Part shown: positions 3,185 through 22,169 of the stretch, one piece after another
Layout: every line of letters begins with the position of its first letter
How positions within the stretch are numbered: the stretch's first letter is position 1
Origin: a virus
Lineage: Duplodnaviria > Caudoviricetes
DNA length: 28,883 nt
Direction: 5' to 3' (one strand)
IMG/VR virus record: IMGVR_UViG_3300032330_001930
Span: 1 to 28,883 of that record
Made by a program: the position numbers and the translations under genes
Notes under the pieces: model-generated
Database searches by the model: none
What the model was told of the DNA's origin: nothing
What the model saw: the letters and a program-made list of their open reading frames with translations, nothing else

Positions 3185-3850
3185 TTAGTATGTTGATACT
3201 TTTTGAATGTTCAATGGAATAGTAACTCTTGCTCCACTATCTCTACCAATTACTGTAATTGTAGTAGATAATTGTGATAATGTAGAACCAAATAACGTAT
3301 TAACTGTAGTACCTGATAATGAGAATGAAGTACCAACTTGGCTTACTGAAAGTACAGCACCTGTTGTTGTATTTAAACCTGTAATACCTGGAGTAGTAAC
3401 TGTAATACCAGTACCACTAAATGAAGATACTAAACGAGAATCAGCAATTGTTGCAATGTATCCATTAGCTTCAAATGTACTTGTAGAACCTAAGTAATTA
3501 AGTGTTTGTGGGGTGATTGTTAATGAAGCACCTTGACGTAATGAGATAGTATTGTATCCAAGATTAATAACTGGTAATTTAGATGTACCACGAGGTAATG
3601 TTACCAATTTATAACGCATGATCTGTGATTCATTAGGGAATGCTTCTAATACTGGAGTATTTTCAATTGCTTCACCGTAGAATGCAGATCCTGATGGGTG
3701 GTTTGGATTATACAAGGTATAATCAACTTCATCATCAGCTAATGCGAATTGTGTAATTTGAAATGAACCATCATTACGAGCCAATAATTCGCGGCCCTTC
3801 GTGGTTAATATTGCATCTACAGTTATTGTTGTAGGGTTTAAAATTGCCAT
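3185..3850 (-). CDS. Virion structural protein, tail-collar-like N-terminus
   Basis: AILTTKGRELLA...ITQFALAD motif; beta-rich C-terminus; late motif upstream. Confidence 0.6.
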   Translation of the reverse strand: MAILNPTTITVDAILTTKGRELLARNDGSFQITQFALADDEVDYTLYNPNHPSGSAFYGEAIENTPVLEAFPNESQIMRYKLVTLPRGTSKLPVINLGYNTISLRQGASLTITPQTLNYLGSTSTFEANGYIATIADSRLVSSFSGTGITVTTPGITGLNTTTGAVLSVSQVGTSFSLSGTTVNTLFGSTLSQLSTTITVIGRDSGARVTIPLNIQKVSTY

Positions 3851-3872
3851 AGTTCTTTATGTTGTATATACT

Positions 3873-3880
3873 ATAAATAT
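3873..3880 (-). promoter_or_regulatory. Putative late promoter ATATTTAT
   Basis: The same octamer lies 4-22 nt upstream of six start codons in the late region. Confidence 0.55.
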
Positions 3881-3887
3881 ATTAAAT

Positions 3888-4640
3888 TTAGAAGCTTCCA
3901 CCACTAATATCATTTATTACTGATTGATCATTAAGTAGTTTTTGTTTAACTTCTTTAGTTATTGTGTCAATGTTTGCTAATACTTCTTTACCAAGATCCT
4001 CAGGTATCAAGAAACCATACGATGTTTTACCATCACGTTTTGTAAAGTTTAATATAACGTTAGTTTCATCTGATTGTCTGGATATTATTAAGAATCGTGT
4101 ATAAGTTTGGTTTGCTAAATCACTTTTTAAAATAGCAGACAATTGAGTATTTAATTTTAAATGCAGTTTTGCTGGAGAACCGTCTAGATATGCATTTACT
4201 ATTCTAGATTCTATATAAGTTCCATCTGACAAATATACTAATAAAATATCTGAATTATTAATTACAAAAGGGTAATCTACATCACCATAATTGTATGTTC
4301 CTGCATATAATGTATTTATTGAACCTGTTAGTGGATTAGGGACAAAAGTATAATTACCACCATAAAAACTACTAATATTTGATGATAATACAATCTCATC
4401 AGTATTAGATCCTAAAGATATAGAAGCAGAGTCAAAATATGAAGGTACTGTTGTATTATAACCTGTTGAAGCAGCTAATGATGATACTTCTAAACTTCCT
4501 GCTCCAATAGATGCTGTAAAATTACTACCTGTAAGTCCTGTAACTCCATCTAAGTGTAACTTAAATATAAGTTTTTCCCCAGCGCCTAATGGTGTTGAAG
4601 GAATATTTAAATTAAAAGTTGTACTTGTTGTTTTTGACAT
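3888..4640 (-). CDS. Virion structural protein
   Basis: S/T/G-rich beta protein directly downstream of the large wedge gene. Confidence 0.6.
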   Translation of the reverse strand: MSKTTSTTFNLNIPSTPLGAGEKLIFKLHLDGVTGLTGSNFTASIGAGSLEVSSLAASTGYNTTVPSYFDSASISLGSNTDEIVLSSNISSFYGGNYTFVPNPLTGSINTLYAGTYNYGDVDYPFVINNSDILLVYLSDGTYIESRIVNAYLDGSPAKLHLKLNTQLSAILKSDLANQTYTRFLIISRQSDETNVILNFTKRDGKTSYGFLIPEDLGKEVLANIDTITKEVKQKLLNDQSVINDISGGSF

Positions 4641-16084: not shown

Positions 16085-16867
16085 CTAAATCTTTATATAT
16101 CCATGCTCATAATACTCATTATACAGTCGAGTACGTAATGTATCTAACTTTTTAATAATTTTAGTTATCTGAGGAGTAGATACATCTGTCATTTCACGAA
16201 TGTATATATATAGAGCCTTTTTATTAAATATCTCTAGCGTTTCACGCTTACGAAATAATTCAATAATAGCATCTGCTGTTTGAGCATCGTGTTGTTTAGG
16301 GAATAATGTGTGGATGTGTTTATCAATGTATTTGATATACTGATTGATGAATAGATTTGGAGAATGCATCTCGTCAATAGCATCCATTGATTCGTATAAT
16401 TGAGTTTTGTCCTCATCAATTTCCTCTACATCAGCTTTTTCTTGTAATTTCTTGTAATTGTTCTCATTATATACAATTAAATAACGTTTAGCAATAGTAC
16501 CAAAGTAACTAAATGCTTTACCTTTTTCAGCCTTATATAAATGGAGTTTTTCAAGAAGGAATGTAATAACCTCATGTTTTAATTCCTCAATTGTATCTGT
16601 ATCGGTATAATAGAATTTAAACGTATGAATAATATTCTCCGCTAACTTATAAAAACCATATTTAATACGATCATTATAAATTTGATTACGTTTAGCCGTA
16701 TCGACAGTAGCTAAGTACTCGATAATAGCATCCTCAGTATCTTGAGTAAAATAAATTCTTGGTTCTTTCGGTTTACGCTTACGAGGTTTACCGTGTTTAG
16801 TTAAAGCGATTACTTCGTCATCACTACCGAAAATATCGTAGTCATAATCTTCTTCATAATATGCCAT
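16085..16867 (-). CDS. Phage RNA polymerase sigma factor for late transcription (T4 gp55-like)
   Basis: YF....E.AIIEY...YKLAENII..FKFY...ELKHE...KL..Y...KGKAFSYFGTIAKRYL (sigma region 2-like). Confidence 0.8.
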   Translation of the reverse strand: MAYYEEDYDYDIFGSDDEVIALTKHGKPRKRKPKEPRIYFTQDTEDAIIEYLATVDTAKRNQIYNDRIKYGFYKLAENIIHTFKFYYTDTDTIEELKHEVITFLLEKLHLYKAEKGKAFSYFGTIAKRYLIVYNENNYKKLQEKADVEEIDEDKTQLYESMDAIDEMHSPNLFINQYIKYIDKHIHTLFPKQHDAQTADAIIELFRKRETLEIFNKKALYIYIREMTDVSTPQITKIIKKLDTLRTRLYNEYYEHGYIKI

Positions 16868-19430: not shown

Positions 19431-19456
19431 CGTCAATATACGAACCGAACTATGCC
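19431..19456 (-). promoter_or_regulatory. Early promoter repeat
   Basis: GGCA-N12-TATATTGACG. Confidence 0.75.
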
Positions 19457-19737
19457 GCAGCACATTTCGGTGTATACTGAGTATTATAACGCTCGATAAT
19501 CGGTTTCATGTGATCATTGATCTTATCAGCATCGGCCTTCGTCTCATCACTAGCCCAATTAAACGTTACTGCGTCTTGATAACTACGGTTCCATTCAATC
19601 GATTCATCAATGTTGTTCTCTGGTTTACAGAATGATATTGAACCATGGAATCCATCGTCCTCGATCACATAACCTAACAACTGAGCATACGCACATACTT
19701 CCCTTGTAATAGCGTTTTTAATTTCTTTCTTATTCAT
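19450..19737 (-). CDS. Hypothetical protein
   Basis: Own promoter and leader; stop codon lies inside the next promoter. Confidence 0.8.
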   Translation of the reverse strand: MNKKEIKNAITREVCAYAQLLGYVIEDDGFHGSISFCKPENNIDESIEWNRSYQDAVTFNWASDETKADADKINDHMKPIIERYNTQYTPKCAAA

Positions 19738-19755: not shown

Positions 19756-19785
19756 CGTCAATATACGAGTGGGGCCTTGCCCCAC
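19756..19785 (-). promoter_or_regulatory. Early promoter repeat overlapping a 7-bp hairpin
   Basis: GGCA-N12-TATATTGACG; GTGGGGC-AAG-GCCCCAC stem at 19769-19785. Confidence 0.7.
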
Positions 19786-19794
19786 CCCATTCCA

Positions 19795-20073
19795 TTAACA
19801 ATCTTTCCAATATTCTTTCATAACCATATCTACATCTTCTTTACTTAATTTTAATCCATCTTCTAACATTCCACCTATAAATTCACTATCACCACCTTCT
19901 TCACCTACTTTATACCAATAACCATTTACTTTATCTAACCACTCTCTTACACTTACATCTTCATCACTAAAATTACTCTTAACCCATTCAATATTTTCTA
20001 AATAATTATCATCTAATATATCATTTTCTACTTCAATTAAATACTCTTTTAACCACTTTAAACTTAAATTCAT
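19795..20073 (-). CDS. Cytosine-free gene encoding an acidic, Trp-rich 92-aa protein
   Basis: No G on the + strand from 19780 to 20110; the protein lacks P, A, T, H and Q; own promoter at 20107-20138. Confidence 0.85.
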   Translation of the reverse strand: MNLSLKWLKEYLIEVENDILDDNYLENIEWVKSNFSDEDVSVREWLDKVNGYWYKVGEEGGDSEFIGGMLEDGLKLSKEDVDMVMKEYWKDC

Positions 20074-20106
20074 AATTTATACTTTTTAATTATTAATATT
20101 ATATAT

Positions 20107-20138
20107 TAAAGATAAATAAATAACTTTGACTTTTCAAA
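20107..20138 (-). promoter_or_regulatory. Promoter of the C-free gene
   Basis: TTTG-AAAAGTCA-N12-TATCTTTA (20-nt spacing). Confidence 0.75.
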
Positions 20139-20159
20139 GATCAACATAACTATTTTAAA

Positions 20160-20320
20160 GTAAAGTGTTGGGTGAGGGACCCGTGAGCAGGAGGTACCGT
20201 AGTCCCCTCAACGGAGCTGGAGCCAGCCCTAGCAGCAATTGAGCCGGGTAGACACCCAGCTCGTTCGCCATTAAAAATTAAAAGTATGAACCGATTTTAA
20301 GCCTCGTGGGCTAATATTTT
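20160..20320 (-). ncRNA. Candidate structured ncRNA
   Basis: Promoter TTTG-N20-TATATTGT (20325-20356); hairpins GAGCTGGGT/ACCCGGCTC (G-U pair favours the minus strand), GCTGG/CCAGC, TGAGGGGAC/GTCCCTCA. Confidence 0.55.
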
Positions 20321-20654: not shown

Positions 20655-20894
20655 CTAGGCTTCAACCGCATCGGCCTTCACCTTCTTAGGTGCGCCACGC
20701 TTGATCTCAATACCTGCTGCGATCTTAGCTGCTTTAGCTGCTAGCTTCGCTTGACGAGCACTGGTTGCACTCGCTGGACGGCCTCTACCTGTTGATAACC
20801 CTTGAGCTGCTCTTTGAGCACGCGCATCTAATCTTGTTTGACGAGCTGATCCAGCTACTACTGGACGACCTCTTTTACCTGTTTCTTTTGACAT
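20655..20894 (-). CDS. Basic AT-hook repeat DNA-binding protein (start revised to MSKETG)
   Basis: KRGRP, GRGRP and KRGAP motifs in an Ala/Lys/Arg-rich protein; promoter at 20927-20958. Confidence 0.75.
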   Translation of the reverse strand: MSKETGKRGRPVVAGSARQTRLDARAQRAAQGLSTGRGRPASATSARQAKLAAKAAKIAAGIEIKRGAPKKVKADAVEA

Positions 20895-20926
20895 AACTGT
20901 TTTTTTTTTATTTTTTAATTTTATAT

Positions 20927-20958
20927 TGTGAATATCGGAACAAAACCTTGCCAATCAA
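20927..20958 (-). promoter_or_regulatory. Early promoter repeat
   Basis: TTG-ATTGGCA-N12-GATATTCACA. Confidence 0.65.
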
Positions 20959-21518: not shown

Positions 21519-22169
21519 TTAACGTGTTGATTTAGGTCTGCCGCGGCGCCCACCAGAGCGTGCTCTAGTAGCTGCCTTCGCGGTTGCCTTAGCGGTCACC
21601 TGGGCTGCGGACAAAGCCGGGCGCCCGCGCTTACCTCCACTAGTGGGTTTGATCGCAGCTGGTTTCGTAACACCAGATGCTGGTCTACCACGCTTGCCTC
21701 CACTGCGTGCTGCACGTGCAACACGTTCCGCTTCGCGGGCAGCCTTCACTGCTGGATCAATCGCTGGACGTCCCCTGCGGGCACCAGGTACCTTCTCCTT
21801 CGCGGGCTTGCTACCGCGCTTAAGCTGACGGTCACGTTGCTTAGCTGCTTTCTCGGCTACGCGGGCCATCTTATCCAACGTCTTCTTGTGCTTGATCACG
21901 GCTGGGTGTAAAATGATCTGGTCGAGATCATAGCAACGGATGCCACCAGACTCGTCACGCACCTCATATCCGCCGTTAGGCCAGAACGGTGTTCCTGGCT
22001 CGTGACGCTTGATTAAGAAAAAAAACAAACGCTTCTCATAAAAAAACGGTGCGGGGAGAACACGTTCGCGTGGTTGAGGGCTGGCTAATACATCTTCAAC
22101 ATCAGTGTACGCTAGATACTTACCCAAATTCGCACCACCCACTATAAAATCTTTTTCTATTACTTTCAT
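21519..22169 (-). CDS. Protein with N-terminal globular domain and four C-terminal AT-hooks
   Basis: RRGRP, KRGRP, KRGRP and RRGRP separated by Ala/Lys-rich linkers. Confidence 0.8.
   Translation of the reverse strand: MKVIEKDFIVGGANLGKYLAYTDVEDVLASPQPRERVLPAPFFYEKRLFFFLIKRHEPGTPFWPNGGYEVRDESGGIRCYDLDQIILHPAVIKHKKTLDKMARVAEKAAKQRDRQLKRGSKPAKEKVPGARRGRPAIDPAVKAAREAERVARAARSGGKRGRPASGVTKPAAIKPTSGGKRGRPALSAAQVTAKATAKAATRARSGGRRGRPKSTR

Follow-up and report, generated by a model that had tools for sequence, protein, structure and literature searches.

A naturally cytosine-free early gene in a swappable slot of an Immutovirus-related phage: a candidate counter-defence cassette

A protein-coding gene without a single cytosine on its coding strand was found in the window, that is, the whole 28,883-nt stretch of DNA analyzed here, a 28.9-kb virus fragment that carries baseplate and endolysin genes. 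Four things were directly observed: the absence of C, its persistence across the protein family, the limits of the C-free tract, and a slot in related genomes where unrelated C-free genes replace one another. We tentatively favor, at a strength just short of probable, the reading that the gene is an early counter-defence cassette that would stay readable under a cytidine-directed block, through loss or poisoning of CTP or a C-cutting RNase. In a broader form that we consider rather probable, such genes would make up a three-letter emergency set encoding small proteins of unrelated families, sometimes as many as four side by side, which would be the sole genes expressed during a still undescribed base-specific host defence.

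The + strand was devoid of G over 331 nt (111 A, 83 C, and 137 T), and the coding (−) strand is thus C-free. No longer G-free run exists on the + strand of the whole window, where the runner-up measures 64 nt and the longest runs free of A, C, and T are 28, 52, and 29 nt, respectively. The tract begins 37 nt ahead of the ATG, directly past the C of a −7-type promoter element, and ends 15 nt beyond the stop codon, at the first C of a 9-bp hairpin (Table 1). All synonymous codons are C-free (Ser AGT, 6/6; Leu TTA, 10/10; Arg AGA, 1/1), and the coding strand of the gene contains 33% T and 26% G. With the 24 other small ORFs of the window as background, the probability of a protein lacking Pro, Ala, Thr, His, and Gln is about 1e-9, and that of finding every synonymous codon C-free, given this protein, is about 1e-9.6. 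Among 51 minus-strand ORFs, it was the only one below 8.9% C. These counts bear out what a first-pass annotation had described, namely, a + strand without G over 331 nt, a product devoid of five amino acids whose remaining codons are all C-free, a tract bounded by the C of the −7 element (20111) and the post-stop hairpin, and neighbors using C normally (at least 8.9% in each of the 50 other minus-strand ORFs). Its statement that the entire transcription unit is C-free stood for the leader, CDS, and trailer, which the tract covers, but the extent of the unit is doubtful, because the start is only predicted and the hairpin, which lacks a U-tract, lies partly within the promoter that follows. The hairpin corresponds to the upstream portion of the ordinary early promoter of the next gene (−7 element 19765-19758), and the true mRNA could extend into C-containing genes. 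In two of four RNA runs from a single study, contigs extended over the 3′ half of a closely related allele; such contigs show neither strand nor transcription and give a weak hint of expression.

Table 1. Features of the C-free gene and its surroundings, and multi-gene C-free cassettes of relatives (window coordinates unless a locus is named).
Feature	Coordinates	Strand	Basis or remark
Marker ORF for collecting relatives, no family match	16085..16867	−	48% identity to a Flavobacterium phage immuto protein, its best match
Ordinary C-containing early gene, downstream slot edge	19450..19737	−	Locus comparison
Hairpin, 9-bp G/C, first post-stop C at 19779, no U-tract	19767..19787	−	Folding
C-free tract: end of −7 element, leader, CDS, 15 nt trailer	19780..20110	−	Base count
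ORF, 92 aa, acidic, without P/A/T/H/Q	19795..20073	−	ORF translation
Leader, C-free, A/T-rich, 33 nt	20074..20106	−	Base count
Predicted promoter, Bacteroidota-type: TTTG (20138-20135), 20-nt spacer, TATCTTTA (20114-20107)	20107..20138	−	Bacteroidota consensus, start predicted
Conserved non-coding element, upstream slot edge in 10 related loci	20190..20290	−	Locus comparison
Multi-gene C-free cassettes	L186 1043-2932 (1,890 nt); L249 5896-6974 (1,079 nt)		Immuto-side relatives
Multi-gene C-free cassettes	L250 22-1098 (1,077 nt); L248 1-987 (at least 987 nt)		Immuto-side relatives

The position of the boundaries was then compared with the promoter of the gene, whose −7-type element was assigned with the Bacteroidota promoter consensus. 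This promoter contains Cs at 20128 and 20111, and a further C lies immediately upstream at 20139. In 10 promoters of C-free genes, the leaders held 4 C in 283 nt, versus 193 C in 2,131 nt for 96 ordinary early promoters, while the C of the −7 element was kept (0.6 per element versus 0.75), a comparison that omits L039, where no motif matched. The 30 nt upstream of the −7 element were partly C-poor (2.6 versus 4.6 C, p 0.02), three of the low values coming from promoters that lie within an upstream C-free transcript. Among the 22 promoter matches listed for immuto, 15 continue with a conserved ATCAATAATTAAAA, which places a C just after the predicted start; in the promoter of its near C-free gene, this C is replaced and the −7 element C is kept. 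In L031, a second promoter located inside the predicted transcript of the first is C-free, whereas the first promoter is not. On the other side of the genes, at least 12 C-free nt follow the stop codon in 21/21 low-C ORFs versus 22% of 2,573 ordinary small ORFs, a count in which genes sharing multi-gene C-free tracts are non-independent. An extension of roughly this length beyond the stop codon spares a truncated message from ribosome rescue. Given the C-free leaders and trailers and the retention of C in the −7 element, the rule thus concerns the positions that serve as template or are incorporated into the transcript, in agreement with the earlier view that the constraint tracks the mRNA, as the boundary falls at the predicted transcription start and not within the promoter.

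The few residual Cs were also unevenly distributed. T was the next base in 23 of 31 cases versus a 30% background, including two promoter Cs of one mis-started ORF. A hand count of the four cleanest genes found T after C at 9/10 independent sites (p 3e-4), the bias having been spotted post hoc with few genes behind it. CpU is the context in which U can replace C through template misalignment, and it is also the slowest CpN step of RNase A-type enzymes.

The 92-aa protein has a net charge of −14, and its AlphaFold model is a small helical fold (pLDDT 90). Pfam, PHROGs, and PADLOC returned weak matches only, so that no family was assigned; the Atlas held zero matches, Foldseek found none at E 0.001 in BFVD or PDB, and tblastn against cultured phages, immuto included, gave no match. 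The best VIA match of the model (Z 5.8, rmsd 3.0, 78 aligned) is at a level common among helical models. The family comprises 11 proteins at 63–96% identity and 5 others of similar length at 39–47%. Together with the query, these 17 proteins contain 8 C-requiring residues out of 1,604; 14 have none and the three exceptions carry 1–4, a count that omits P0018 (a 24-aa fragment) and P0019 and P0020 (both longer and of ordinary composition). The comparison with homologues that the first-pass annotation had proposed was thus in its favor at the protein level, with 14 of 17 members devoid of P/A/T/H/Q in a family reaching down to 39% identity. DNA of one other allele only was available, from L002 (same contig as L031), L007 being identical over the aligned region. 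This L002/L031 allele is C-free over 435 nt and has a doubled promoter with the second copy inside the tract. A metagenome scan, covering 18 of 64 parts, returned at least one locus, identical to the L002/L031 allele. Since homologues, synonymous sites, leader, and trailer are all C-poor, the data support a purifying selection against C that keeps the gene C-free. Separately, P0019 (140 aa) is 40% identical to the window protein, contains 17 P/A/T/Q residues and an N-terminal extension, and may represent the four-letter source of the family.

The marker ORF matched 6 of 50,697 phage records, with immuto as the best match, and gene order around it is the same in immuto and in the window. By these sequence comparisons, the window derives from a large Immutovirus-related phage, and its host probably belongs to the Bacteroidota, given the relatedness to immuto and the promoters. 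In PP395634.1, annotated as 'Microcystis phage Mel-JY01', genes of the baseplate region come after the marker ORF, an arrangement shared with the present phages, whose hosts are likely Bacteroidota, and the stated host may deserve a check. The window also encodes two basic early proteins with repeated RGRP motifs and no Pfam match (20655-20954 and 21519-22169), which presumably resemble AT-hook DNA binders.

Eighty loci were gathered with the marker ORF, and 10 of them hold the conserved element upstream of the slot. In these 10 relatives, the slot contained a C-free gene in four cases and an ordinary gene in three, and was empty in three. The four C-free genes belong to three unrelated families, i.e., the window family (L031), a family designated B (L013 and L039), and a third one (L024). 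Family B proteins are basic, 123–126 aa long, and have 344 database relatives; the 120 of these that were listed, up to 26% divergent, contain 1 C-requiring residue out of 14,744. When L037 (930-1060) was compared with L039 (520-1275), both flanks were common and the family B C-free cassette with its promoters was found in L039 alone, from which the difference appears to be a clean insertion or deletion. Judging from these alignments, the gene is small, accessory, and swappable, and sits with its own predicted early promoter in a variable region. Counter-defence genes tend to occupy accessory, swappable positions, and the location fits the earlier proposal of a candidate counter-defence gene.

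The first-pass annotation had also proposed a scan of related phages for genes lacking one nucleotide. The survey covered 5,046 distinct ORFs of the collected loci and genomes. Of these, 21 had less than 1.5% C, none fell between 1.5 and 2.5%, and none had less than 5.5% G, so that no ORF without G was found. The 21 low-C ORFs formed 10 BLAST clusters, two of which align as one family, giving about nine families with net charges from −28 to +8; no family match was found for those other than the window family. In other relatives, C-free genes occur at further places of the early region, and one tract of 1,890 nt contains four of them. Immuto itself has an early gene that is almost C-free, immuto26A_128 (357 nt, of which 5 are C), and near C-free homologues tolerate 4–5 Cs. 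In the most distant set (78 loci), a single ORF out of 1,908 was low in C, and it was the allele already known; the trait is therefore patchy.

Several side observations were made during this survey. The multi-gene cassettes include a basic family of 154–176 aa with an invariant YNFRSxRW...RFExWCRRSG stretch and no family match, which from its sequence may be an enzyme. Two unrelated near C-free genes (L004 18678-18686 and L186 2929-2940) have their last Cs in the final codons, which read Thr-Ala-stop and Ala-Asp-stop, respectively. Partly C-depleted early genes, with 2.6–7.4% C, were seen in L249 (2925-3824), L216, L171, L070, and L068 (2001); some are homologous to fully C-free ones, and they may be on their way into or out of the C-free state. 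Two candidates were discarded, a 172-nt run in L132, which is the antisense of a Thr/Pro repeat, and a 104-nt run in Mel-JY01, which looks non-coding.

Taken together, the accessory position, the exchange of unrelated proteins, and the all-or-none purging of C fit a counter-defence cassette expressed during a base-specific block. In this scheme, host RNA polymerase would read the gene early, from its own promoter; a defence present in some hosts would block C-containing messages, via CTP loss or poisoning or a C-cutting RNase, and only C-free messages would be completed. The 12 or more C-free bases beyond the stop codon would allow a normal end of translation, the small acidic protein would bind and switch off the defence or its sensor, and ordinary genes would then resume. 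Starvation for CTP or its poisoning is a doubtful route when taken singly, and a C-cutting RNase is an unlikely one. A block that acts on CTP or on RNA is favored because the boundary lies at the predicted start, the −7 C is kept, the coding strand is G-rich, and CpT is tolerated. Against it count the partial C depletion upstream of the −7 element, the tolerance of 4–5 Cs, and the wide charge span of the C-free families, and it does not predict the association with guanine modification described below. The base concerned is by itself of little help: AUG and the stop codons contain the other three bases but never C, which makes C the one base that a gene can do without altogether, and its omission is therefore poorly informative as to the agent. 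The literature searched yielded no ribo-CTP-depleting defence, and a term search returned no passage on a C-specific defence RNase, nor any on C-specific cleavage in two Csm6 papers.

Seen from the template strand, the same tract is free of G, and selection for a G-free template, mentioned as an alternative in the first-pass annotation, is stronger than was put there, because close relatives encode 7-deazaguanine DNA and glycosylases against 7-deazaguanine have been published. In this view, the phage likely replaces G with a 7-deazaguanine derivative, and host glycosylases of the Dag type or other G-directed enzymes would damage these bases, whereas a G-free template would stay readable and could not take a double-strand break, with an inhibitor, perhaps an acidic DNA mimic, still being made; we regard this as rather unlikely. 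According to the accessible text of 10.1101/2023.04.13.536721, immuto DNA has no canonical dG and that of Campylobacter phage CP220 and Cellulophaga phage phiST shows full G substitution. G001 and G002, the closest long relatives of the window (proteins mostly 45–90% identical), encode QueD, QueC, FolE, and a DpdA 35% identical to immuto DpdA3, and pathway genes are present also in G012, a close relative. In the accessible part of 10.1101/2025.10.29.685425, Dag1 removes 7-deazaguanine derivatives from DNA and nicks it there, and homologues of the enzyme occur in Bacteroidota. The modeled window protein, small, helical, and acidic, would suit such an inhibitor. Among marker-bearing genomes complete or at least 90% complete, a near C-free ORF was found in 4/5 with the pathway (immuto, G001, G012, and G017, the fifth being G018) versus 0/3 without it (Mel-JY01, LR756508, and G035; Fisher p 0.07). 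Dropping G012, a genome that had been picked up by way of its C-free gene, raises p to 0.11, and adding G034 (78% complete) lowers it to 0.04; G002, which lacks the early region, and G031, whose contig begins just past the expected Dpd cluster, were omitted. The immuto DpdA query missed the phiST DpdA3, so an absence by this query alone carries little weight; QueC, QueD, and FolE profiles or tblastn were used in addition. However, the pathway-negative genomes are all distant (marker about 36–41% identical to that of immuto), and the association may reflect kinship. The 28.9-kb window has no DpdA, FolE, QueD, QueE, or QueC gene, that region lying outside the fragment. Moreover, the G-rich coding strand (26%) would be attacked too, the −7 element keeps a template G even in the rarer variant of immuto, and G018 has the whole pathway and no C-free gene. 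Neither CP220 nor phiST, both fully G-substituted, shows a gene-sized C-free run: phiST has none of 90 nt, and CP220 has one A/T-rich C-free stretch, its reading frame left aside. Finally, abasic-site bypass favors A, which would spare CpA and not the observed CpT.

Some features of these genomes are recorded here in their own right. G001, the closest complete relative, encodes QueD, DpdA, QueC, a QueE-like ORF, and FolE at 176833-179381 and 1-2589, with no QueF match. G017, a complete immuto relative, encodes QueD, QueE, FolE, and a DpdA 27% identical to that of immuto at 108954-116246, with no QueC or QueF match, and likely makes another G derivative. The marker ORF of G012 (reverse strand, 3634-4596) aligns over 323 columns versus 260 aa, as would fit some 60 inserted codons.

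The remaining explanations appear much weaker. If host RNA polymerase could not read modified G, a first G-free template might make a factor that adapts it, as would suit the full replacement of G in immuto and the finding, in the accessible text of PMC4838386, that 7-substituted 7-deazaguanines inhibited bacterial RNA polymerases most among the bases tested. The same text places this block in vitro at initiation and not at elongation, whereas the C-free tract spans the transcribed part. This idea is largely refuted by G018, which is 100% complete, has a full immuto-type pathway with a DpdA 84% identical, and contains no ORF below 7.2% C; a phage of this kind can thus have its own modified DNA read without such a gene. 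Furthermore, the slot has no C-free gene in 6/10 close relatives, the L012 contig has no C-free run over the upstream 13 kb, and the C-free proteins are mutually unrelated; we therefore regard it as very unlikely. Equally improbable is a strand-specific C-to-T mutation, with a deaminase attacking the displaced strand, or else an artefact of assembly or conversion, even though one base is missing from one strand in a highly transcribed early region. T stands at 33% and not at the approximately 42% estimated from neighboring genes for plain conversion, G is at 26%, Ser is retained through AGT, neighbors with equally good promoters keep C, the listed family B proteins remain all but devoid of C-requiring residues despite their divergence, and the trait recurs in independent assemblies and in a cultured phage. 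An mRNA without G-C pairs, selected for very fast translation, would be expected to fold poorly, and two 146-nt pieces of the tract do fold more weakly than 200/200 and 192/200 shuffles, with open centroid structures. Nevertheless, weak structure is a consequence of C absence, a single C adds little structure whereas the distribution is all-or-none, and five amino acids were given up; this explanation is hardly credible. Avoidance of particular tRNAs or anticodons and C-to-U recoding of the mRNA were rejected, as both would leave the C-free third positions, leaders, and trailers unexplained, and strand-blind modification-dependent nucleases were set aside since the coding strand is G-rich. A cause outside all of these readings is quite unlikely.

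Nothing relevant on a natural cytosine-free gene was found in the literature searched, which covered few subscription papers. The occurrence of the trait in about nine unrelated protein families of one phage group implies a strong and recurrent pressure, and the likely source is a host activity directed at either the cytidine of RNA or the guanine of template DNA. Such a gene exists in a cultured pair, immuto and its host Flavobacterium sp. LMO8, and the question can therefore be tested immediately. The locus supplies a swappable slot, a complete genome ruling out the need for the gene in reading modified DNA, the CpT bias, and a cultured phage for testing. The trait would give a purely compositional route to counter-defence genes, and it would provide cases from nature in which 15 amino acids suffice for a folded protein. 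If the emergency-set reading is true, base composition alone would point to a new kind of immunity and to its inhibitors.

Among known systems, nucleotide-depletion defences (dCTP deaminase and dGTPase) and prokaryotic viperins share a host activity on one nucleotide that could select a message without it. As agents, those named in the first-pass annotation fit poorly. The dCTP deaminase defence leaves CTP unchanged (accessible part of 10.1101/2021.04.26.441389), prokaryotic viperins are mostly promiscuous and not C-specific (accessible part of 10.1101/2023.09.13.557418), and these two texts, as far as accessible, describe no base-omitting phage gene. Two CARF-HAD phosphatases were inactive on CTP (accessible part of PMC12715507). 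MazF and other motif-specific RNases were also rejected, since ACA cutting would not demand the loss of every C, whereas all C contexts are purged. Dag glycosylases are a defence against single modified G bases that targets a modification encoded by close relatives of the window phage. The authors of that work expect phage inhibitors and describe escape by loss of DpdA activity, and the accessible text of 10.1101/2025.10.29.685425 describes no inhibitor or G-free template. Among the DpdA3 phages, immuto shares with the window the gene order, the marker ORF, and one near C-free early gene, but has no match to the window protein, while CP220 and phiST show no C-free gene; C-free genes are not mentioned in the accessible part of 10.1101/2023.04.13.536721, which deals with all three. 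The window protein also recalls Ugi and Ocr in being small, acidic, early, and rich in aromatic residues. These phage inhibitors are DNA mimics; no sequence or fold match to them was found, and the window protein is modeled as helical, whereas Ugi is beta-rich. Finally, G-less and C-less cassettes are used for in vitro transcription and ACA-less genes for single-protein production with MazF. They share with the present gene a template that can be read without one NTP or a message that escapes an RNase, but these designs are engineered, whereas the trait described here is natural, protein-coding, and present in about nine unrelated families.
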